A stretch of DNA of 64,000 nt from Candidatus Saccharimonadales bacterium (GCA_038231155.1 JBBRLY010000016.1:21506-85505), one strand, 5' to 3'; shown: positions 13,160 to 54,072, counted from the stretch's first letter. Made by a program: numbers and translations. Notes: a model not told the origin generated them from the sequence alone.

Positions 13160-13558
13160 GGGGCTGAATTTTAAGCTCGACGTTGGTCTTTATCGGTTAT
13201 GGATGCAGGTCGCTTGTCAGCGATATAGGCAAACCACGAATAAGTGCAAAATCTTTTCGTAACGTAGTTGCTTCAGTTAATAACTTTGTAAAAAGCTTAA
13301 CTCCAGTAACTGCAACAGCTTTAGCTTAAATTGCTTTAGCCACGCCTAGCGTGACACCAGATAATTCTAGCGCGTGTCATATATCTGGATGCTCAGATTT
13401 GCTTGATCCTACAAATTTGTTAAGACTTTGGATCAAAGATACATGACTTTTTGGTCATTTACCGGCCACGTATCTTACAGTTAAATGACCTATACCTGTA
13501 GAAGCCTAACCAAGATAAACTAGCGGACCCGGAGGGCGGTTCTCCGGCAGCTCCACCA
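13160..13558 (+). ncRNA. ssrA: tmRNA (ssrA).
   Basis: The 5' end GGGGCTGAATTTTAAGCTCGACG and the 3' tRNA-like end GGACCCGGAGGGCGGTTCTCCGGCAGCTCCACCA match the tmRNA acceptor and T-arm. An internal tag reading frame ends ...TATALA-TAA. Confidence 0.8.
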
Positions 13559-27750: not shown

Positions 27751-27825
27751 TGGTGACCTCAAGGGGAATCGAACCCCTATTGCCAGGATGAAAACCTGGT
27801 GTCCTAACCGTTAGACGATGAGGCC
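27751..27825 (-). tRNA. tRNA-Glu (anticodon UUC).
   Basis: A 75-nt cloverleaf is present with the T-arm GGTTCGATTCCCC and an encoded CCA. Confidence 0.85.
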
Positions 27826-45884: not shown

Positions 45885-45961
45885 GGGCCATTAGCTCAGC
45901 TGGTTAGAGCACCTGCCTCTTAAGCAGGGTGTCCAGGGTTCGAGTCCCTGATGGCCCTCCA
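45885..45961 (+). tRNA. tRNA-Lys (anticodon CUU).
   Basis: A 77-nt cloverleaf with perfect acceptor stem gggccat/atggccc, an encoded CCA, and the T-arm GGTTCGAGTCC is present. Confidence 0.9.
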
Positions 45962-47587
45962 AGTATCGAAAATAGGCACTAAAGCTTCCTCCAACTCCTT
46001 TGGGGAGGTTTTTTTATTAGTTCTTACCCTTCTATACGAAGTCTCGAGCTCAGGATAGCCCTCTGCAATCGGTACTAACCAGTCGTTAGGTGTTATTTCT
46101 AAATGTCCGTCTTTTAAAACTAAGTTCTTACCCAAAGTTTTAAGCACGTCCCGTTTGTCCATCAGTGTGCCTGTTGCAAAACGCACTCGTGCGTAGGTAG
46201 CGAAATCAAACGCCTTCTCGGTTAGTTCCAACCAATCATCAGCTCGTTGCTCAGTACCACGTAGACCATCGTCTATACGTATAAGATCGGACTTTAGCCT
46301 GCTGCGCTGTTCAATGTATTCATCATCGTCAAGCAGGTCACGTGTGCGCATATCAACCAGTTTGTCTAAACGTTCTTGGATTTGCTCACGGCTGTGCTGC
46401 TGCATTTTATAAATACAGGTACGGTTTTTGCCCTCAATCTTATTGTTACGGCGCAGTACTTTAAGGGCAATGTCTCTAAACTCTGGCAGGATTGTATACT
46501 TTGCCAGCTCTTCCTCAATCTGGTTGTGAATATTTTCAACCCTCGTGTACTTGGTTTGCGTACAAGGGCGTGCCTCGCTTTTACGTGTGCAGTAGTAGTG
46601 GACGTACACTGCCATTTTATTATCACGCTTTACAAATTTGGTATTGGTCTTGCCTACGATACTACAACCACATTCACCGCACTTAATCATCCCCGCAAAA
46701 GAGTAGTCAAACACGCCCTTACGAGGCTTGCCCTTGCTGCCGAGTAAGGTTTGAGCATAGTCAAACTCATCAAGAGTAATCATCGGTTCGTGGTTACCTT
46801 TATAGATTTCACCGTTGTGTGATATCCAGCCTGCATAAAAGGGGTTGTTAAATATCTTATAAATCATACTGCTGTGCATAGAGCTGCCACCAATTTTACC
46901 GTTCTCACGAGTAATATACTTCCAATCATCGGTGGCTATTTTGTATATTTGTGAGGCGTTACGATTACCAGACAATAGCATTTGCCACATTTTCTTGACT
47001 GGCTCATAACGTAGGGGGTCATTAGCCGTGTGCATAATAACCTTGTTGTCTTTAGACCTCAGCTGAGGCAAGTGGTTTTCATCAAGCACAGGCACTTTCA
47101 TATAACCCTGAGGTACTTGCCCAGGACGCTCCCCATTTGCAGCTTTCTGCTCCATACCACGTTTAACGTCACGACCTTGCTTAGAGCTTTCGTACTGTGA
47201 CTGGTTCATCACCATTTGCAGCATCATAATACCCTCGGCGGAGTTATCAAAGTTAAAGGAGCAGAACTTTAGGTCTTTAAGTTCATTGCGTAGCATATAG
47301 GTTAGTGTTGCACTATCAAGCTCGTTACGTGACAGGCGATTGGGATGCCACGCAACAATACCATCGGCTTTGCCTTGCTTAATCATATCTATCATTTCGG
47401 CGAAGATTGGTCTGCCTGGCTTAAAGGCACTCTGGCTCTCGGGCTCAAGCCATTTAACGATATTGAGGCCTGGAAAGGCTCTTTTGATTTCTTTTATTTG
47501 TGACGGATGCGAAAGCTCTTGGCGTTCCTTACGCTCTTCTGACTTACGTACGTAAGCTATGTATCTTAGTTTGTTCTTGGTGTGCAT
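45920..47587 (-). CDS. Large serine recombinase (integrase).
   Basis: The N-terminal resolvase domain (YVRKSEE catalytic Ser, PNRLSRN) is followed by a recombinase domain, a zinc ribbon CGECGC...YYCTRK and a coiled coil. The 3' end overlaps the tRNA-Lys 3' end. Confidence 0.85.
   Translation of the reverse strand: MHTKNKLRYIAYVRKSEERKERQELSHPSQIKEIKRAFPGLNIVKWLEPESQSAFKPGRPIFAEMIDMIKQGKADGIVAWHPNRLSRNELDSATLTYMLRNELKDLKFCSFNFDNSAEGIMMLQMVMNQSQYESSKQGRDVKRGMEQKAANGERPGQVPQGYMKVPVLDENHLPQLRSKDNKVIMHTANDPLRYEPVKKMWQMLLSGNRNASQIYKIATDDWKYITRENGKIGGSSMHSSMIYKIFNNPFYAGWISHNGEIYKGNHEPMITLDEFDYAQTLLGSKGKPRKGVFDYSFAGMIKCGECGCSIVGKTNTKFVKRDNKMAVYVHYYCTRKSEARPCTQTKYTRVENIHNQIEEELAKYTILPEFRDIALKVLRRNNKIEGKNRTCIYKMQQHSREQIQERLDKLVDMRTRDLLDDDEYIEQRSRLKSDLIRIDDGLRGTEQRADDWLELTEKAFDFATYARVRFATGTLMDKRDVLKTLGKNLVLKDGHLEITPNDWLVPIAEGYPELETSYRRVRTNKKTSPKELEEALVPIFDTWRAIRDSNPGHPA
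45985..46017 (+). terminator. Intrinsic terminator after tRNA-Lys: a GC hairpin (cctcc...ggagg) plus a T7 run.
   Basis: The terminator is read directly from the sequence. A second copy lies at ~50995-51023. Confidence 0.5.
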
Positions 47588-47649
47588 ATCTTATCCTTAA
47601 TTTTATAACAAAATGTACTATTGAAATAGGTGTTAATACAGGCCATAGG

Positions 47650-48192
47650 CTATTTTCCTACACCGAAACGACTGGTCATTATTTCACCTAATGATTGAGC
47701 CCGATTGCGACTGGTTTTTGTATAGGGGGTAATTTCTGTAGTAGTTTTTGAAGTAATCTTCTGTGTAATCTTTGTAATAGATTGCTGGAAAGCCGCAAAC
47801 CCAGAGCCTATTTCCAGGTCTTTGAACTCGTCAGTTTCCAGCAGACTAATTATCACTAAGGAGAGGATATCCATATCAATATAAAAGTGTCGCTTTTGGG
47901 GGACACCTTTATTCTTGGTCTCAAGAAAGCCAAATGCTTTTAGATTTTTTATAGCACGGTCCTGCTTGTCTCTGCTCAGCCCCGTCTCTTTATAAAGCTC
48001 TGCCTGTGTCTTATAGAACGAATTATCCCGCCTGTGGCCCTTGCCACGCCAGTAGAGTAATTGGCTTAGGATAATGCCCTCATTTACACCAAAAATAAGG
48101 CCCAGCCCTGAGATATAGAGAATTGAGCTATTGGTAAACAAATTTTTAATCTGTTGCTGGCTTGGGCTGGCTTTGCTCATTGCTGTTCTCAT
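47650..48192 (-). CDS. Winged-helix DNA-binding protein, possibly a replication-initiator/DnaD-like N-domain.
   Basis: The pattern is weak: ...LSQLLYW...ELYKETGLSRDKQDRAIKNLKAFGFLE. Confidence 0.35.
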   Translation of the reverse strand: MRTAMSKASPSQQQIKNLFTNSSILYISGLGLIFGVNEGIILSQLLYWRGKGHRRDNSFYKTQAELYKETGLSRDKQDRAIKNLKAFGFLETKNKGVPQKRHFYIDMDILSLVIISLLETDEFKDLEIGSGFAAFQQSITKITQKITSKTTTEITPYTKTSRNRAQSLGEIMTSRFGVGK

Positions 48193-48359
48193 TCACATTT
48201 ATGCTTAGTAGTTGTTGCTTGCTTATTGGCTGGTAAATAAGCTCCATTTGGCGAACAAGCAGCTCTAATAGCCTCCTGGCTTCAAAAGACTTCAAGCTTA
48301 CGCCAAACCTTGCTTTATATGCCGACTGGAATGCCTCAACGTCAGACGTAATAACCATA

Positions 48360-48611
48360 TTAGCTACCGTACAGCCTATTTTTTAGCTGCCTGATAGCAT
48401 CAAAGTAGGCACGGGGTTCAATTGTTATGCTGCCTTTATGATACGAATTAACGAGTGTTTCTAAGCCCTCGCTCGTGACAAAACAAAAACCAGCCCTTTT
48501 GGGGTTGGTTCGTTCAATGCTCTGTAGTGATTGTCCCAATGCAATAAGTGTTGCTGCCAGTGGCAGGTCTTGTGTCGAATAGGTTTTCATACTGATTGCT
48601 TCATCGTTCAT
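48360..48611 (-). CDS. Hypothetical small protein carried by the element.
   Basis: ORF call. Confidence 0.3.
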   Translation of the reverse strand: MNDEAISMKTYSTQDLPLAATLIALGQSLQSIERTNPKRAGFCFVTSEGLETLVNSYHKGSITIEPRAYFDAIRQLKNRLYGS

Positions 48612-48673
48612 AAAACGATGGTATGACGTATGATTAACTAAAAATAACCCAAAGTTTACACGTAAATTTTAGA

Positions 48674-49291
48674 CTATTTTGGCAGACGCTTCTTATACTC
48701 TTGGATGTACCTGTTGATTTCTACATAGGTATCCGTGCATTTAAAAGCCTCGTTTATCTTTGCAACTATTTCGTTGGGCCTGAGGCCTTTTTGTTTGAGC
48801 AGGTACGCCATACGCATTTTCTCGTGCTTTCTCTTCGGTAAACCGTTAGGACGCTTCTTTGGTTCTATGCTTTCCTGCTTAAACTCTCGAAACAGCTTTA
48901 TGATTTCCTGTTCAGTCGTTTGTTCATAAAAAGTCATTTCGTATGTTGCCCTGCCTGACTTCTTGTCATTGTGCTCAACAATCATCGGACCACCTGCATC
49001 AAAACTGGAGTATTCGTTATAAAATATGTACCTTAATAGGCTGGCAAAAGAGGCTGCGGTTAACCCATAAGTACCTTGGTGGAAGAACTTAAGCCTTATG
49101 TCATTATGTAAGCCATCAACTAATTCAAGATTTTGTACTATCCATTCTGGTTCGCCAGTGTCAAACGTGGGTTTCTTTGGTGTGGTTATATGCCACTTTC
49201 TACGAATAGCCCGTACGTCTTTTTGAAACCTAGCACTATCAACAAGCTCGTGGGCACGTTGCTGTTCTTTGTAGCTTCGCTTATCCTTCAT
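48674..49291 (-). CDS. Hypothetical protein carried by the element.
   Basis: ORF call. Confidence 0.35.
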   Translation of the reverse strand: MKDKRSYKEQQRAHELVDSARFQKDVRAIRRKWHITTPKKPTFDTGEPEWIVQNLELVDGLHNDIRLKFFHQGTYGLTAASFASLLRYIFYNEYSSFDAGGPMIVEHNDKKSGRATYEMTFYEQTTEQEIIKLFREFKQESIEPKKRPNGLPKRKHEKMRMAYLLKQKGLRPNEIVAKINEAFKCTDTYVEINRYIQEYKKRLPK

Positions 49292-49345
49292 TTACATACT
49301 CATCCATATACTTATTCTATCAACTTCGTAGGATATAATTAGTCT

Positions 49346-49753
49346 ATGCAAGTAACCACACGCACCAGAGGACGACCAACTGTATTCCATAATGAAGTTG
49401 TCCATAAATTGGAGCAGGCATTTGCTATTGGGTGCACGGTAGAAGAGGCCTGCATCGTATCTGGTGTGTCACGCTCCGCTTATTACAACAAACTAAATAA
49501 TGACCCTGATTTTATGGACAGAATGGCACGTATCCAGCTCTTTTTGATAATTAAGGCACGGCACACTGTATATGACGCCATTCGTAGGGGCGATACTAAG
49601 ACAAGTAGGTGGTATTTAGAGCGTAAATGTAGAGATGAGTTTGGTGCGCAAACACAGAACCATAATGCAGCCAGCACCCAACTAGACAGCTACACGGAAG
49701 ACGAGCTACGCAGAATAGCTGCCGCCACTACATATCCTTATACAGCCTCTTGA
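49346..49753 (+). CDS. HTH DNA-binding protein (terminase-small-subunit-like or regulatory).
   Basis: An N-terminal HTH (GCTVEEACIVSGVSRSAYYN) is present. Confidence 0.4.
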   Translation: MQVTTRTRGRPTVFHNEVVHKLEQAFAIGCTVEEACIVSGVSRSAYYNKLNNDPDFMDRMARIQLFLIIKARHTVYDAIRRGDTKTSRWYLERKCRDEFGAQTQNHNAASTQLDSYTEDELRRIAAATTYPYTAS

Positions 49754-49828
49754 ATGCTGTGAGTGCGTTGTAGCATTCAAAGCCACTGATGTTAAAGTTG
49801 TATTTCTACGTTTTGCCCATTTTGATTA

Positions 49829-50236
49829 CTATATTCCCAGTAATTGTTTTTTCTTGGCGTCAAAATCAGCTTGGGTAATGATACCCTTTTCTTTCAAGTC
49901 TGCAAGCTTTTCAAGCTCATCCGTAGGAGATGGGGCTGTACTTGTTTGAGGCTTATCGCTCTCCATTGCGCTAATAATAGCTTGCCGCAAGGCTTTTTTG
50001 TCCTTAACAGCGGTTGTGTACTTTTTGCCACCTGTTGTTTCTATAATGACTGTCCTTTGGCCCATAGTGCCAAGCTGTACACTCGCTATCTGATTGAGTG
50101 GGATACTCTCGTTCTCGCCCAAACGCTTCAATTCAATTCTATTTTTGTATACTCTAGCTCGTGAACCCATAACGCTTGCCTCATATAGTGGCTGCTCTTC
50201 ATTGGTTTGGTCGCTATTCCTGTTAAATAAACTCAT
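49829..50236 (-). CDS. SHOCT-domain protein with an N-terminal bacterial PH-like region.
   Basis: The C-terminal motif LEKLADLKEKGIITQADFDAKKKQLLG is a SHOCT motif. Confidence 0.55.
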   Translation of the reverse strand: MSLFNRNSDQTNEEQPLYEASVMGSRARVYKNRIELKRLGENESIPLNQIASVQLGTMGQRTVIIETTGGKKYTTAVKDKKALRQAIISAMESDKPQTSTAPSPTDELEKLADLKEKGIITQADFDAKKKQLLGI

Positions 50237-50282
50237 CGTTCTTTCCTTTCATTTAGTAGTATTAGCGTGTCCAAATAAAAAA

Positions 50283-50410
50283 GGACAACCAATCTAGGTT
50301 GTCTACACCAAACAACAAGGTTGAACCTGCTGCCTTTCGACTGGTTGCCCTTTTTATCGGTTCAACCAAAAAAGCATTAAGCTTTTGCTCGTTGTTTAGT
50401 GTAGACATAC
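50283..50410. repeat. Nested inverted repeats. Outer arms are gtctacaccaaacaac/gttgtttagtgtagac; inner arms are ggttgaacc/ggttcaacc. They could form a ~115-bp cruciform or stem-loop.
   Basis: The repeats are read directly from the sequence, upstream of the SHOCT gene. Confidence 0.5.
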
Positions 50411-50936
50411 TAATAATAGCGTATCTGCACATAGAAACGTACTAATTGTAAGGGGTGATTGTAGTAGAGTTTGGCTAGGTTCTTTTATTGTACAAGTTCA
50501 TTGGCAAGCTGTACCACGTTCGTTGTACAACCCCAAGACAGGGTATAACCTGCATCACCGTGTCCATAGTTATGAATGATGTGTTTACTGCCAATGGCAT
50601 TGATTTAGGTGCTTGGCTTTAAATTGCGGCTACTACTGAGCCTACGACCTTGTGGAGTTATCTTTTTGTGTATTCAGTAAAGTAGTAATAGCCAGCGGTA
50701 ATAATACTTAAAAAGATAAACACGAAAGTCCAATCAAATCTAACGTTGTTATTATTTGTTAAACTAATATAGCAAGTTGGCAAGTTCTCGTTATTAGACA
50801 TATCCCAAAACATCCATAGCCAAAATATAACTAACAAGACTGGTATTAACAAAAAAATTAATGTCATCAACGTAATTATAGTCTATTTAACGACCACTAA
50901 GTGCAAGACAAACAAATTGTTATCCGCTTGGATAGC

Positions 50937-50966
50937 AGTTGCGATAGAGTTGACGATGAACCTCCA
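50937..50966 (+). repeat. att-like repeat R1 (agttgcgatagagttgacgatgaacctcca).
   Basis: It matches the tRNA-Lys 3' end (gatggccctcca) and the gttgcRatag motif. It is extended by a ~60 bp copy of the tRNA downstream region. Confidence 0.6.
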
Positions 50967-51022
50967 AATATCGTATATCGGCTCTAAAGCTTCTTCCAAC
51001 TCCTTGGGGGGAGGCTTTTTTG

Positions 51023-51673
51023 TTAGGCAAGTCCGAGCAGCTTAAGTGCCGTATGCGGATCAAGTCCGACTTGACCAGCCACTTTTATAGCAAGACTAAC
51101 CACTTCCAACGTTCCTTTTATGGTAGGAAGGCTTTTCTTTAGTGCTTTCGCAAACTTGTTCTCTTTACTGGCCTCATCAGGGTATTGATGTTCCAGATTG
51201 GTTAGCTTCTCAGTAAGGGTTACTATGGTTTGATTAACTTCAACTTGAACGCTTGTAGTCTGAGCAACTTGTTGGTCTGCATTCAAATGGTTGTTAATGG
51301 TTGTGGGAGACAGACCTGCCGCTTGCTTGCTGAATTTAGGTTGCTGAGGATACGCACACCAATAACCCACGACCTTATCAACCTTAAACATATAGTTTGC
51401 AACCCCACTGAGTGCTCTTACATAGGCCTCGCCAGTTACGAAAGAGCCTGTACGCTCTGTACTGCGAATTGTAAGCTTGAAGTCATTGAGCTTGCTGTCG
51501 TGAGTAAGGCCAAATAGTTCGTCAATATATGCATTTAGTCTCTCGCCCTCACCGTTGCGAAGTGATAATGATGTGATGTCAGGAGTTAGAGCCTCAATAA
51601 GCGAACAGAGTAGCTCGTATAGCTTTATCAGTGGCTCATTGCGTGGAATTGTGGGCTCGTCATCGTCAAACAT
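51023..51673 (-). CDS. Hypothetical protein (cassette cargo).
   Basis: ORF call. Confidence 0.4.
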   Translation of the reverse strand: MFDDDEPTIPRNEPLIKLYELLCSLIEALTPDITSLSLRNGEGERLNAYIDELFGLTHDSKLNDFKLTIRSTERTGSFVTGEAYVRALSGVANYMFKVDKVVGYWCAYPQQPKFSKQAAGLSPTTINNHLNADQQVAQTTSVQVEVNQTIVTLTEKLTNLEHQYPDEASKENKFAKALKKSLPTIKGTLEVVSLAIKVAGQVGLDPHTALKLLGLA

Positions 51674-51722
51674 ATCTATGATTATATACCTGCAATTATC
51701 AAATGCCTCGTCTCCGTTAAAC

Positions 51723-51753
51723 TAGTTGCGATAGACAAGACGATGGACCTCCA
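51723..51753 (+). repeat. att-like repeat R2 (tagttgcgatagacaagacgatggacctcca).
   Basis: 31/31 identical to R4. Confidence 0.6.
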
Positions 51754-51759
51754 TACTGC

Positions 51760-51987
51760 TTATGCTTTAATACTTCTTTTTGGAGTCTTTATATTTTGTT
51801 TAGAATAAACTGAAAAATAATAAACAATACCTCCTACGAAAGGTCCACCTAATAACAGCACTAAAATCCAACCAATTTTGTACGGTATTTTACTTTTAAT
51901 GACGTGTATAAGCATGATTGCCCATAAAATAATAAGCCCTAACACTATTAGTGGCACAACATAGAGGAATATGAATTTCATATTCAA
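51760..51987 (-). CDS. Small two-TM membrane protein (cassette cargo).
   Basis: ORF call. Confidence 0.35.
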   Translation of the reverse strand: MNMKFIFLYVVPLIVLGLIILWAIMLIHVIKSKIPYKIGWILVLLLGGPFVGGIVYYFSVYSKQNIKTPKRSIKA

Positions 51988-52083
51988 ATATTAGCATATT
52001 GATTTTCAGTTGCGTTAGTATGTACAGTGGCCCTCTAAGCACATTGTACAATAAACTTGACAGTATAATCTAATGTATATACA

Positions 52084-52368
52084 ATGGATTATATGAAAAC
52101 GGCAGTGGTTAATTTTAAGACTGATGAAGCTACTAAGCTTAAGGCTCAGAAAGTAGCTAATCAAATTGGTATACCCCTAAGTAACCTCCTGAACGCATAC
52201 CTGTACGAACTCGCAAGCACAGGCAGTGTCCATTTCACTGCATCTGAACCTATGACTGAAAAGATGGAAATAATGATAGCCGAAGCCGAAAAGGAAATAG
52301 CAGCAGGCGATGTAAGTGGCCCATTTGAGTCTCTAGAGGATATGTTTAAGCACCTAGATAGTCTTTAA
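52084..52368 (+). CDS. DinJ/RelB-family type II antitoxin.
   Basis: An RHH-type N-terminus (VVNFKTDEATKLKAQKVANQIGIPLSNLLNAYL) is present, and the gene is immediately followed by a YafQ-like toxin. Confidence 0.65.
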   Translation: MDYMKTAVVNFKTDEATKLKAQKVANQIGIPLSNLLNAYLYELASTGSVHFTASEPMTEKMEIMIAEAEKEIAAGDVSGPFESLEDMFKHLDSL

Positions 52369-52369
52369 A

Positions 52370-52627
52370 ATGGTTATCGAGACTACGAAAGCTTTTGATA
52401 AACAGTATGCCAAGTTAAATAGCAAGACCAAGACTTCTTTTAAAAAACGCGTAGAACAATTTAAAGCAAACCCATTTGACATAAGTTTAAGAAATCATAC
52501 GCTTAAAGGAAAGTATTTGGGCTTTAGGAGCATCGATATTACAGGTGACGTGCGAGCACTATATACAACTCAAGGTGATACGATCATTTTATTTGGATTT
52601 ATAGGGACACACAGCCAGTTATATTAG
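52370..52627 (+). CDS. YafQ/RelE-family type II toxin (mRNA interferase).
   Basis: An 85 aa ORF with the ...LKGKYLGFRSIDITGDVRALY...IILFGFIGTHSQLY pattern. The gap to the antitoxin is 1 nt. Confidence 0.7.
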   Translation: MVIETTKAFDKQYAKLNSKTKTSFKKRVEQFKANPFDISLRNHTLKGKYLGFRSIDITGDVRALYTTQGDTIILFGFIGTHSQLY

Positions 52628-52647
52628 GCCTATTAGTCTTAATTTTA

Positions 52648-52676
52648 TTTGCGATAGCACGCACGGTGGCCCTCCA
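52648..52676 (+). repeat. att-like repeat R3 (tttgcgatagcacgcacggtggccctcca).
   Basis: It carries a tRNA-Lys 3'-end copy, tggccctcca. Confidence 0.55.
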
Positions 52677-52793
52677 AAGATACATTAACAGATACCGGAT
52701 AGTTCCAATAACAGTACACCTGTTTTAGTAACACTAATTTGTATCTGTTATTTAATTCCACTCTCTATTGGTCTTATTTGGTATCATTTAGTT

Positions 52794-53189
52794 ATGACTA
52801 GTTACATTAAAGACCCCCGAATAGACGAATACATATGTGGCCTACCTGAATGGCAAGTAGCTATTTGTAATCAAGTTCGAGAGCTAATTCACTCAGCTGA
52901 CGCAGACATAGTAGAAACCATTAAATTCACAAATAGACCCTACTTTATTCTGAACGGTAACATCTGCGCTCTGTTAGCTGCTAAAACCCATATTAACGTG
53001 TTTATTTACGACCCGATTGCTCCTGACCCAGAACATATCATTAATCAGGGTCACGGCAATCAGACGGCTCGGTCAATTCAAATTGATGAAAATGATGAAA
53101 TTAATTCAGTTGCATTGAAAAACCTTATCAAGGAAGTTGCAAATAATAATAAAGCAGGTGGTTGGCGTAAAATAAAGGAGAAATTATGA
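52794..53189 (+). CDS. DUF1801 (YdhG-like) domain protein.
   Basis: This is a pattern-based call. Confidence 0.5.
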   Translation: MTSYIKDPRIDEYICGLPEWQVAICNQVRELIHSADADIVETIKFTNRPYFILNGNICALLAAKTHINVFIYDPIAPDPEHIINQGHGNQTARSIQIDENDEINSVALKNLIKEVANNNKAGGWRKIKEKL

Positions 53190-53578
53190 CTATAAATTTA
53201 GCTGCAATCGCAGTCTGCACTTTGGGAGCATTCGTATTAAGTAGTGTGTGGTATATGGCTTTAGGTAAACAGCGGGCCCGACTACTTGGCCTTGACATTA
53301 AGGTTGAGCAGCGTCCAAAACCAAAAAATATTATCCTTGAGCTACTAAGAACATTTGTATTGGCCTTAGTTTTCGCGATTGTACTATCCGAAATGAAAGA
53401 CTCCAGCCTGCACGCATCACTGTTACTCGGTATTAGGTTGTGGCTGGCATTCCCATTCATACTACTGAGCGGTTCAGTTATGTGGGACAAGGTACCAGCT
53501 AAACTCGCTGCGATTCATGCCGGAGATTGGTTTATCAAACTAGCATTAATAGCATTGATTGTAGGTGCTTGGCGTTGA
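53186..53578 (+). CDS. DUF1761-like small membrane protein.
   Basis: It has four TM helices and overlaps the upstream gene by 4 nt. Confidence 0.45.
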   Translation: MTINLAAIAVCTLGAFVLSSVWYMALGKQRARLLGLDIKVEQRPKPKNIILELLRTFVLALVFAIVLSEMKDSSLHASLLLGIRLWLAFPFILLSGSVMWDKVPAKLAAIHAGDWFIKLALIALIVGAWR

Positions 53579-53582
53579 ATGG

Positions 53583-53613
53583 TAGTTGCGATAGACAAGA
53601 CGATGGACCTCCA
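53583..53613 (+). repeat. att-like repeat R4 (tagttgcgatagacaagacgatggacctcca).
   Basis: Identical to R2. Confidence 0.6.
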
Positions 53614-53660
53614 TTACGGTTATGCTTGCATAATTTACGAAAAGATGTAATCTCTGAATC

Positions 53661-53999
53661 ATGAGATTAGTTATAGCTAGAGGACATGTTCTTGAAGAAG
53701 GTGAAGGTTGGTTACGTGTTGGCCCTGTTCCTGGTAAATATACACCAATACCTGTAGAGGATTTTGTAGGTGAATTTCAAAGAGTACCTTTAACTGTCGA
53801 TTCAGCAAACGAAGATTGGGAAGAACGTTTTCCAGATTATTATGACAATAGTGAAGTTCCTTTGCGTTTTAAAGGTTCCTCCATTGTAGATGGTTTACAC
53901 GTTGCGGTTGAAGGTATTCATTTTCGCTCAGGCAGACTAAGAGGTATCCTCAATCTTTCTGCAGTTGAAGTTGTTCAAGATCAATCCGACCAAGCTTAG
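53661..53999 (+). CDS. Hypothetical protein (cassette cargo).
   Basis: ORF call. Confidence 0.35.
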   Translation: MRLVIARGHVLEEGEGWLRVGPVPGKYTPIPVEDFVGEFQRVPLTVDSANEDWEERFPDYYDNSEVPLRFKGSSIVDGLHVAVEGIHFRSGRLRGILNLSAVEVVQDQSDQA

Positions 54000-54027
54000 T
54001 TGCCATAGCACCGACTGTGGCCCTCCA
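53997..54027 (+). repeat. att-like repeat R5 (tagttgccatagcaccgactgtggccctcca).
   Basis: It carries the tRNA-Lys 3'-end copy, is followed by a small hairpin (gcataagc...gcttat), and has a T-run. Confidence 0.55.
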
Positions 54028-54072
54028 AGCATAAGCGTTATACTTCATGCTTATTTTTTTTGTTATGATAAT

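Follow-up and report, generated by a model that had tools for sequence, protein, structure and literature searches.

A composite island at the 3' end of a tRNA-Lys gene, probably made by a family of large serine recombinases

The window, a 64,000-nt stretch of DNA from a Candidatus Saccharimonadales bacterium, contains a tRNA-Lys(CTT) gene whose 3' end is followed by a ~8-kb row of six units (Table 1). Because copies of a 30-nt motif, called hereafter the P arm, delimit these units, the island extends from 45962 to 54027. It comprises one complete element (unit 1, 45962–50966, 5,005 bp), with an integrase, a replication initiator and a plasmid-like backbone, and five integrase-less units with intact cargo genes. 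Beyond the last P arm lies a hairpin that is probably the displaced native terminator of the tRNA gene (B' side), and an EamA-like host gene comes next. The G+C content of unit 1 (0.418) is modestly higher than that of the flanks (0.374–0.375).

Table 1. Positions of genes, recombination-related sites and other features in and around the island.
Feature	Position	Strand	Basis or remark
tRNA-Lys(CTT), encoded CCA	45885..45961	+	ARAGORN and Rfam
Large serine recombinase (LSR, integrase), 555 aa	45920..47587	-	Domain matches, homologues
CCTCCA: last two acceptor bases, discriminator, CCA	45956..45961	+	attL compared with attR-type sites
P' arm and last ~20 integrase codons (- strand); hairpin plus T7	45962..46021	+	Repeat copy 1
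Replication initiator, DnaD/O-like winged helix, 180 aa, family F3	47650..48192	-	PHROG 9773, 2.5e-26
Conserved backbone protein, 70 aa, family F1	48146..48358	-	In 13/16 elements compared
DUF5659 backbone protein, 83 aa	48360..48611	-	
205-aa protein without assigned function, family F9	48674..49291	-	In 3 elements
HTH protein, 135 aa, terminase small subunit-like	49346..49753	+	PHROG 4102, 3.6e-17
SHOCT-domain protein, 135 aa	49829..50236	-	
Conserved long inverted repeat; candidate origin or operator	50272..50421	n/a	
Small membrane protein, 70 aa	50658..50870	-	
P arm B	50937..50966	+	Right end of complete 5,005-bp unit 1
Relic P' arm and 3' end of a second element's integrase, 1-nt insertion	50967..51027	+	Repeat copy 2
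216-aa cargo ORF, unit 2	51023..51673	-	
P arm C	51724..51753	+	Exact match to P arm F
PLDc_N small membrane protein, 75 aa, unit 3	51760..51987	-	
P arm D, degenerate	52008..52037	+	4 mismatches, core CCTCTA
RelB antitoxin and YafQ/RelE toxin pair, unit 4	52084..52627	+	
P arm E	52647..52676	+	
DUF1801 and DUF1761 proteins, unit 5	52794..53578	+	
P arm F	53584..53613	+	
112-aa ORF, function unassigned, unit 6	53661..53999	+	
P arm G	53998..54027	+	Outermost attR-type site, distal island end
AT-rich hairpin plus T8	54031..54061	+	Outside P arm G

An earlier note on this DNA had described an LSR gene overlapping the tRNA-Lys 3' end, and this was confirmed. The overlap is 42 nt, the integrase stop codon lies inside the tRNA anticodon loop, and the 3' half of the tRNA, read as its reverse complement, supplies the final 13 codons, WRAIRDSNPGHPA*. 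The protein has the Resolvase, Recombinase and Zn_ribbon_recom domains. Its N-terminal resolvase catalytic domain carries the nucleophilic serine (PF00239, 7.9e-20), and the Recombinase domain and Cys-rich zinc ribbon exceed the cut-offs of PF07508 and PF13408. Ser16, Arg14 and Tyr12, as well as C303, C306, C308, C333 and C342, were invariant in 36 homologues. The SPbeta integrase structure was a distant match to residues 263–436, and a search of phage and plasmid LSRs returned no close relative (at most 25% identity). No directionality factor, which in LSR systems reverses an otherwise one-way attP × attB reaction, was identified for this integrase.

The codons preceding the overlap contain a hairpin followed by a T-run, found at the integrase 3' end of 20 of 21 family members. 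In the family, 90% of cells were paired, versus 49–63% in slid controls, and nine cells were compensatory, a level of covariation that none of 500 shuffles reached. The earlier note had taken the hairpin for the terminator of the tRNA; throughout the family, it is embedded in integrase coding sequence. Hairpin and T7 in the P' arm may function as a replacement terminator for tRNA-Lys.

Homologues of the integrase numbered 688 at E≤1e-20, and nearly all of the best 120 of these end in ..SWRAxxD(S/L)NPxHxA, which is tRNA antisense sequence. Of 59 evaluable metagenome loci, 50 carry a tRNA gene at the integrase 3' end, encoded on the other strand, and in the 36 loci with an encoded CCA, this triplet is read in frame as Trp. 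Relatives with at least 56% identity target tRNA-Lys (one tRNA-Arg); more distant ones target Asn, Ser, Trp, Gln, Asp and Tyr tRNAs, with His at one extra locus that was too near a contig end to count among the 59. The elements share a backbone (DUF5659, the 70-aa protein, Rep and Int) and differ in cargo, which is restriction-modification or defence. This element family is widespread, largely undescribed, and targets tRNA ends. One member, L004, is a contig of 8,060 nt whose ends overlap by 30 nt, so that it closes into an 8,030-bp circle in which the integrase reads ..SWRAIVDAVAARIN.. across attP; in principle, the circle could instead be a tandem duplication. The same junction type was seen in L103 and L104. 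Arrays of P arms also recur, in L025 and L092 (three each) and in L018 and L026 (two each). For the element at tRNA-Lys itself, a scan of genome contigs with the host flank protein gave one distant match only, and no empty tRNA-Lys site, attP or attB junction was found; that it is mobile we infer from its family.

Comparison of attL with the attR-type sites revealed ~10–12 nt in common, as in the short att sites of LSRs, which confines the crossover to CCTCCA, with the exact dinucleotide predicted to lie within these 6 bp. The B arm of attB and attL is made up of the T-arm of the tRNA and the 3' strand of its acceptor. The P consensus (AGGgCCAtcGT..a..cTAT.GCAACT) and the B consensus (AGGGCCAgg.GGGACTcGAACCC) are identical over the inner 7 bp, and the TcG(c)AAC motif occupies positions 20–26 of the P arm and 16–21 of the B arm, hence 4–5 bp farther out in P. 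In LSR sites, the outer (zinc-ribbon) motif lies ~5 bp nearer the centre in attB than in attP (PMC3783163), and the displacement seen here is the one expected. Two estimates of the dyad centre were 2 bp apart.

The six P arms all lie on one strand within 50937–54027. Five matched the motif with at most three mismatches (0.00 expected) and one with four, and the translation of each resembles that of the attP tail (WRFIVNSIATAI, WRSIVLSIATSL and so on). Between P arms C and F, 32 nt are identical, counting flanking bases. A Logan contig break at 51752 does not point to polymorphism, since this 32-nt identity accounts for a break at k = 31. A promoter-like site (52057–52085) lies by the RelB and YafQ/RelE pair. 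The five integrase-less units measure 284–937 bp and hold one or two intact ORFs each, within tight boundaries; this is not what random deletion predicts.

The anatomy, the family-wide pattern and the circular relative were observed directly, and we consider it probable that the locus is a composite island made at the tRNA-Lys(CTT) 3' end by this LSR family. In the free circle, attP would sit where the integrase gene ends: the last ~25 codons would form the P' arm, the point of exchange would be at TGG-AGG (Trp-Arg), and the P arm would come next. The partner attB would consist of the B arm and of poorly conserved downstream DNA (B'). Strand exchange between attP and attB inside CCTCCA would leave the tRNA intact, would extend the integrase ORF into the tRNA, antisense to it, as far as a stop in the anticodon loop, and would let the hairpin and T-run in the integrase codons take over from the displaced tRNA terminator. 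As attP would lie inside the last codons of the integrase, integration would therefore swap the C-terminal tail. Units 2–6, which lack an integrase, would be passengers of related elements or what is left of them, brought together by repeated site-specific events at one tRNA; unit 2 still has the last ~25 codons of its own integrase gene. The order and mechanism of their accretion are inferred, and the system may be active at the present day. To our knowledge, recombination of attP with attL or attR lies outside the repertoire of canonical LSRs; repeated insertion beside a resident element would therefore need relaxed half-site or directionality rules, and the tandem arrays suggest looser site-pair rules.

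A bolder reading, which we regard as unlikely though conceivable, sees in the island an array of gene cassettes operated by an LSR, as a serine-recombinase counterpart of integrons or SCC. The units without integrase would themselves be mobile, circularising from P arm to their own leader, and would be moved singly by an LSR strict on the tRNA half and lax on the partner. The small units with their tight boundaries and discrete 30-nt site fit this idea, as do the identical P arms C and F beside unrelated cargo, the recurrence of ~450 bp single-ORF units in L092, and the lack of any consensus in the DNA right of the core. Unit 2, moreover, has a P' arm left as well as its P arm, and SCC composite islands offer an LSR precedent (PMC7029136). 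However, no circular cassette was seen, no cassette occurred in two different arrays, cassette ORFs lacked homologues in other arrays, and homologues of the 216-aa gene of unit 2 lie in unrelated contexts without P arms. If the reading were true, the integrase would be strict on the universal tRNA T-loop and acceptor half and would accept almost any partner half-site. Mini-units of 0.3–0.9 kb, with one or two genes, a 30-nt P arm and no integrase, could then be captured at tRNA genes, stacked there, excised together and reshuffled, and related integrases could have been retargeted over eight tRNA identities simply through altered acceptor-stem reading.

The gene content that the earlier note had listed for unit 1 (a replication-like winged-helix protein, an HTH protein, a SHOCT protein and small unknowns) was recovered, and raises the question of a PICI-like phage satellite, integrated by the LSR, replicated from its own initiator, and packaged by a helper phage via the small-terminase-like HTH protein. 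Integrase, Rep and TerS-like protein make up the appropriate trio, the PHROG terS match (3.6e-17) covers residues 3–115, and distant members of the superfamily mobilise inovirus-like genomes. Against this, Pfam and NCBIfam gave no terminase support, unit 1 has no capsid or packaging-redirection genes, no helper is known, the cargo of relatives consists mostly of restriction-modification, defence or FtsK-like transfer genes, and phage records contain no close relative of the integrase. We judge a satellite rather unlikely.

The earlier note had also reported an imperfect repeat of part of the tRNA and its flank at 50952–51027. When the two copies were aligned, as it had suggested, 53 of 66 positions matched between 45950–46015 and 50955–51020, and with one indel the match reaches 46021 and 51027, that is 66–72 nt at ~80% identity, for a chance expectation of ~1.6e-12 in 8 kb. 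The repeat might be the att duplication of a single 5-kb element whose attP holds a long copy of the tRNA 3' flank, in the style of tyrosine-integrase islands, and it does bracket the element exactly and begin in the tRNA 3' end. However, the copies are only 80% identical, and copy 2 is nearer (89%) to integrase 3' ends from other metagenomes (L007 and L008) than to its neighbour. After a 1-nt frameshift, copy 2 translates to the C-terminus of the integrase family, of which only the last ~25 residues are detectable. Besides, the five other P arms and the single-element loci L009, L014, L016 and L017 have only the ~10–12 nt core in common with attL. Such a duplication is accordingly very improbable. 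The part of the repeat related to att is only ~12 nt (GATGGnCCTCCA), and therefore the rule of minimal att identity for serine integrases, against which a 65–70 bp att repeat had seemed unusual, holds for this LSR; the other 54–60 nt of copy 1 are conserved codons of the integrase C-terminus (..NKKTSPKELEEALVPIFDTW), roughly the last 25. Copy 2 is the frameshifted relic of another element's integrase 3' end. The repeat represents the junction P(unit 1)-core-P'(unit 2), the first in an array that has six P arms and extends to 54027, and that the earlier note had overlooked. Its proposal of a compact LSR-driven element at the tRNA-Lys 3' end holds, with the right end where it had been placed, the P arm ending at 50966 within copy 2. 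Finally, we give almost no credence to P arms as decayed partial tRNA-Lys 3' fragments from a tyrosine-type tRNA-restoring mechanism, with the LSR incidental: every copy ends in the tRNA-like GATGGnCCTCCA, but no tyrosine recombinase was found in 45.9–54.1 kb, none of the P arms resembled a tRNA in Rfam even with a threshold of E≤1, in the circular L004 the integrase ORF continues directly into the P arm, and the P arm retains a conserved motif of its own, CTATCGCAACT.

A composite island made by LSR-driven events at one tRNA, the reading that we prefer, has points in common with several known systems. The SSV1 integrase and the integration-dependent immunity of mycobacteriophage BPs also have attP inside a gene, so that integration alters the 3' end of an element gene; in contrast, only a short non-conserved tail past Trp-Arg-Ala is exchanged here, 0–13 codons in the tRNA-Lys group and more in some distant relatives. 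The phiC31, Bxb1, A118/LI and SPbeta integrases have the same resolvase, recombinase and zinc-ribbon architecture, and large serine integrases in general have short att sites, a tiny crossover, and P and B half-sites with common inner sequence and an outer motif displaced by ~5 bp (PMC3783163). The integrase of the window is nevertheless at most 25% identical to phage and plasmid LSRs, it acts at the far 3' end of a tRNA gene and not in a protein-coding gene, its attP lies within its own last codons, with the tail swapped on integration, and the tandem arrays imply looser site pairing. Like Islander-type, P4 and pSAM2/AICE-like tyrosine-integrase islands, the locus combines a preserved tRNA, targeted at its 3' end, with an adjoining integrase and tandem accretion. 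It does not belong with them: its recombinase belongs to the serine class, its P arms do not resemble tRNA, there is no duplication of a long tRNA segment, and the element brings a terminator, not a tRNA 3' half. Nor is it an integron (IntI, attI, folded attC), for its sites are linear 30-nt motifs that attP has too and, again, the recombinase is of the serine type.

The closest precedents are tycheposons and SCC composite islands. Tycheposons of Prochlorococcus are likewise elements with integrase, replication module and cargo beside tRNA genes, building islands in tandem with degraded remnants; they are overwhelmingly tyrosine-recombinase elements with partial tRNAs as separators, an LSR being used by a minority (27/937) (10.1101/2020.12.28.424599). 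Here, in contrast, the separators are P arms of the elements, with only ~12 nt in common with the tRNA, and the host lineage differs, as the backbone genes probably do. In SCC composite islands, a single conserved gene has LSR-driven units stacked at its 3' end, and SCC/SCCmec elements (CcrAB, CcrC) also have short repeated sites delimiting units, recombinase-less modules and accessory cargo (PMC7029136), which parallels the one unit with and the five without integrase in the window. The integrase is not a Ccr orthologue, since the CcrA, CcrB and CcrC models scored 37–69 bits against cut-offs of 700–900 (CcrC, 69 against 900). Compared with SCC, the target is tRNA-Lys instead of rlmH/orfX, the units are much smaller, and the complete unit has its own replication initiator.

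Tandem use of ARAGORN, Rfam and domain searches bore out the earlier note's placing of a large serine recombinase (LSR) gene over the 3′ end of tRNA-Lys, with an overlap of 42 nt (Table). Read in reverse complement, the 3′ half of the tRNA supplies the last 13 codons of the integrase, WRAIRDSNPGHPA*; the CCA of the tRNA is read as Trp, and the stop codon lies inside the anticodon loop. The SPbeta integrase structure was only a distant match to this protein, scores against XisF and Ccr models were far under the cut-offs, and identity to LSRs of phage and plasmid collections was at most 25%.

Table. Features located in the window. Units 1–6 each end in the P arm given on the same line.
Feature	Position	Strand	Content or evidence
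tmRNA gene	13160-13558		
tRNA-Glu gene	27751-27825		
tRNA-Lys(CTT)	45885-45961	+	CCA encoded; ARAGORN, Rfam
LSR gene, 555 aa	45920-47587	-	Resolvase, Recombinase, Zn_ribbon_recom domains
Long imperfect inverted repeat	50272-50421		arms GTTGTCTACACCAAACAACAAG and CTTGTTGTTTAGTGTAGAC
P arm B	50937-50966		motif copy; unit 1, 5005 bp, complete element
P arm C	51724-51753		motif copy; unit 2, 787 bp, 216-aa protein
P arm D	52008-52037		motif copy, degenerate; unit 3, 284 bp, PLDc_N membrane peptide
Promoter-like site	52057-52085		TTGACA, 17 nt, TACAAT
P arm E	52647-52676		motif copy; unit 4, 639 bp, RelB + YafQ
P arm F	53584-53613		motif copy; unit 5, 937 bp, DUF1801 + DUF1761
P arm G	53998-54027		motif copy; unit 6, 414 bp, 112-aa protein

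To the same note we owe the report of an imperfect direct repeat. It is present: 45950-46015 (copy 1) and 50955-51020 (copy 2) are alike at 53 of 66 positions, one indel extends the pair to 46021 and 51027, and chance alone would give about 1.6e-12 pairs of this kind in 8 kb. Its interpretation as an unusually long att repeat had to be abandoned, as copy 2 consists of a P arm (a half-site of the element attP) and a relic of an integrase end, and att-related identity is limited to GATGGnCCTCCA. On the integrase strand, the left part of copy 2 (50937-50966), which is the P arm, codes for WRFIVNSIATAI. Once a 1-nt insertion is allowed for, the right part (50967-51027) gives NKKASP/PPKELEEALEPIYDIW, the conserved integrase C-terminus, and shares 89% identity with the integrase 3′ ends of two loci from other metagenomes (L007 and L008), versus only 80% with the window's own. 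A tblastn search traced the integrase there over its last ~25 residues and gave no further remnant of it at copy 2. Because the left part reads as a P arm and the right part as an integrase C-terminus nearer to L007 and L008, copy 2 is best read as a junction P(unit 1)-core-P′(relic of a second element). In annotation, a "long direct repeat" of this kind should be taken to indicate elements in tandem rather than an att site. Between the copies lie genes for a DnaD/O-like replication initiator, a 70-aa protein, a DUF5659 protein, a 205-aa protein, an HTH protein (with a PHROG small-terminase-like match), a SHOCT protein and a small membrane protein.

Inspection of integrase homologues located attP. 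The best 120 of 688 were 55–84% identical to the window integrase, about 555 aa long and aligned end to end. Nearly all of these terminate in ..SWRAxxD(S/L)NPxHxA, the tRNA antisense, the few exceptions (P0025, P0060 and P0093) having WRA(I/T) followed by IVxAIxTAI... The metagenome (Logan) contig that encodes P0025, L004, is 8,060 nt long and its ends overlap by 30 nt; closed into a circle it measures 8,030 bp, and its integrase frame runs through TGGAGGGCCATCGTAGATGCTGTAGCAGCT. The same junction type was found in other samples (L103 and L104). This junction is the attP configuration, and attP is within the last codons of the integrase gene. At another locus, L014, the attL- and attR-type sites read TGGAGGG versus TGGAGGT, and the flanks diverge directly 5′ of TGG; this comparison would confine strand exchange to the six bases CCTCCA. 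For the window, the predicted attB junctions would have ..GATGGCCCTCCA joined to the sequence from 50967, 51754, 52038, 52677, 53614 or 54028 onward.

Half-sites were compared from the centre of TGG|AGG outward. The P consensus (23 sites) is AGGgCCAtcGT..a..cTAT.GCAACT and the consensus of the B half-site, the tRNA end (20 tRNAs), is AGGGCCAgg.GGGACTcGAACCC. Their inner 7 bp do not differ, and a common TcG(c)AAC motif, which is the T-loop in the tRNA, stands 4–5 bp farther out in P. Serine integrases have been proposed to show this relation of attP to attB, the zinc-ribbon motif of attB being 5 bp nearer the centre (PMC3783163). The attR-type sites have no consensus right of the core, hence the non-tRNA half of attB appears to be loosely specified. 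At six loci (L044, L056, L057, L080, L086 and L089) no tRNA was called at the integrase 3′ end; a T-arm-like stretch (..GGATTCGAACC..) comes after the integrase end there, and beyond it the sequences diverge. Perhaps attP contains a longer tRNA mimic at these loci, or the target has decayed.

The element of about 5 kb proposed at 45885-51027 corresponds to unit 1, but the island is longer. On the integrase strand, the P-arm motif TGGAGGnCCATCGTnnnnnCTnTnGCAnCT occurs six times downstream of the tRNA in a single orientation, and the six units sum to 8,066 bp. A pattern search gave five matches at up to 3 mismatches versus 0.00 expected, and no comparable motif elsewhere in the 64 kb. Units 2–6 are without an integrase gene and their cargo genes are intact. 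The last P arm is followed by an AT-rich hairpin with T8 and then an EamA-like gene; here the original tRNA flank probably resumes. An alignment of the P arms to the D-arm/anticodon region of the tRNA was weak and gapped, and Rfam, which gave no tRNA-like signal at any window P arm even at E≤1, did not support it.

P arms C and F match exactly (32 nt with flanking bases), though the genes of their units are unrelated. This identity breaks a k = 31 graph, which explains why the Logan contig L002 ends at window position 51752; the Logan contig breaks (45904-45921, 51752) were thus discarded as signs of population polymorphism. Similarity seen by eye among unit leaders right of the junctions was also dropped, since blastn-short confirmed only the relic P′ arm and the site E flank versus L008. 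The promoter-like site just past P arm D, in the leader ahead of RelB and YafQ, is of near-consensus sigma-70 type (11/12 matches). An integrase-replacing role for the 216-aa protein of unit 2 was rejected: its homologues occur in other mobile contexts with no P arms nearby. Their neighbours (L096–L099, L100–L102) are either an N6/N4 methylase and an MvaI/BcnI endonuclease or, in a small tRNA-Trp-adjacent element, a small resolvase and a rolling-circle Rep. Mobile elements carry this protein repeatedly as a passenger. For the unassigned ORFs, defence-system, Pfam and NCBIfam searches gave no usable match. Within unit 1, the inverted repeat (~130 nt, RNA-fold z-score −5.4) is about 75% conserved in L008 and L021, the L021 copy being opposite in orientation to the integrase. 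As its arms are invariant and without covariation, it looks more like a DNA site (candidate origin or operator) than an RNA.

In 20 of 21 family members, the integrase codons NKKASxKExEEA contain, ~22 nt past the CCA on the tRNA strand, a G+C-rich hairpin that runs into T5-7. For its 7-bp stem, 90% of cells were paired across 19 sequences, versus 49–63% with slid partner columns; nine cells had double changes, and none of 500 shuffles attained the observed score. A simple terminator scan scored both window repeat copies as terminator-like. We infer from these sequences that the element displaces the terminator of the tRNA and brings a substitute, so that the coding sequence would be an instance of dual-use DNA. 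The terminal flanks of L094 (~75-134) and L026 (~412-471), whose integrases are 84% and 57% identical to the window's, share a hairpin, ATGAAAtGaCCTCAGCTTGyCTGGGG..TTTTC; in related hosts this is probably the terminator native to tRNA-Lys.

A metagenome scan found 317 integrase relatives, of which 80 were retained and 59 loci had sufficient 3′ flank to be evaluated. An opposite-strand tRNA lay at the integrase end in 50 of the 59, and at the 36 loci where CCA is encoded, it is Trp in frame. Relatives of at least 56% identity target tRNA-Lys, with one Arg, and those at 38–48% target Asn, Ser, Trp, Gln, Asp or Tyr; a further locus near a contig end, outside the 59, has tRNA-His. From tRNA to nearest P arm, elements measure 5–11 kb and share a backbone of DUF5659, the 70-aa protein, Rep and Int. 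Their cargo includes restriction-modification systems (type III, AlwI, BsuBI/PstI, ThaI), a DrmE-like protein, a NERD helicase and FtsK/SpoIIIE-like genes. The latter occur in a tRNA-Lys-group relative (L009, 2146-3810), so an AICE-like conjugation route for double-stranded DNA may be open to some members. Distant superfamily integrases (37–40% identity) were seen in inovirus-like contigs with a Zot/pI-like ATPase and rolling-circle Rep (L089, 7086-9615; L091, 4683-6891). Arrays recur elsewhere, with three P arms in L025, two each in L018 and L026, and three in L092, where two single-ORF units are ~450 bp each. The tRNA neighbours are FolD and racemase in the window and L007, ComEC and YebC in L092; this varying host context among close relatives supports independent insertions.

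The anatomy of the island, the family pattern and the circular relative are direct observations, for which repeated site-specific accretion of units would account. Canonical LSRs do not use attL or attR, which makes the addition of a unit beside a resident element puzzling. Half-site or directionality rules may be relaxed, as SCC recombinases, by analogy, hint. Arrays may also have moved en bloc, with excision using a distal P arm. Integrase-less cassettes that are truly mobile are a third possibility, against which no circular cassette was found and none was present in two arrays. Shaping of the units by random decay is disfavoured by their intact ORFs and tight boundaries. One search of genome contigs with a 499-aa host flank protein gave a single 31%-identical match, exact look-ups of right-flank proteins gave no record, and viral contigs matched neither the integrase nor the P-arm pattern; none of these searches yielded an empty site or a junction for the element studied here.

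Taken as a whole, the data point to a widespread clade (688 homologues, 317 metagenome loci) that uses the last bases of tRNA genes and leaves the tRNAs undamaged. Defence genes, among them restriction-modification systems, are part of its cargo, as are transfer genes and even inovirus genomes, and it builds small composite islands. Because attP is in the last integrase codons and attB is the tRNA end, att sites can be read straight from sequence; this offers genome engineering many ready-made LSR/att pairs with conserved, predictable targets, and the family is a natural set in which to study the retargeting of LSR specificity from one tRNA to another.

In the literature searched, this family is largely undescribed. 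Serine-recombinase elements are said to insert inside protein-coding genes in a review of integrative and mobilizable elements (PMC5704250), the main text of a large LSR survey does not mention tRNA (PMC10083194), and serine recombinases together with tRNA att sites were noted in general terms for inovirus prophages (PMC6813254). Among the closest precedents are classical tyrosine-integrase tRNA islands, tycheposons, which are tRNA-side tandem elements and remnants with an LSR in 27 of 937, and SCC composite islands, LSR-driven tandem modules bounded by short repeats (PMC7029136). The arrays of the window are SCC-like, and they belong to a coherent serine-integrase family that targets tRNA 3′ ends and keeps attP in the integrase gene.
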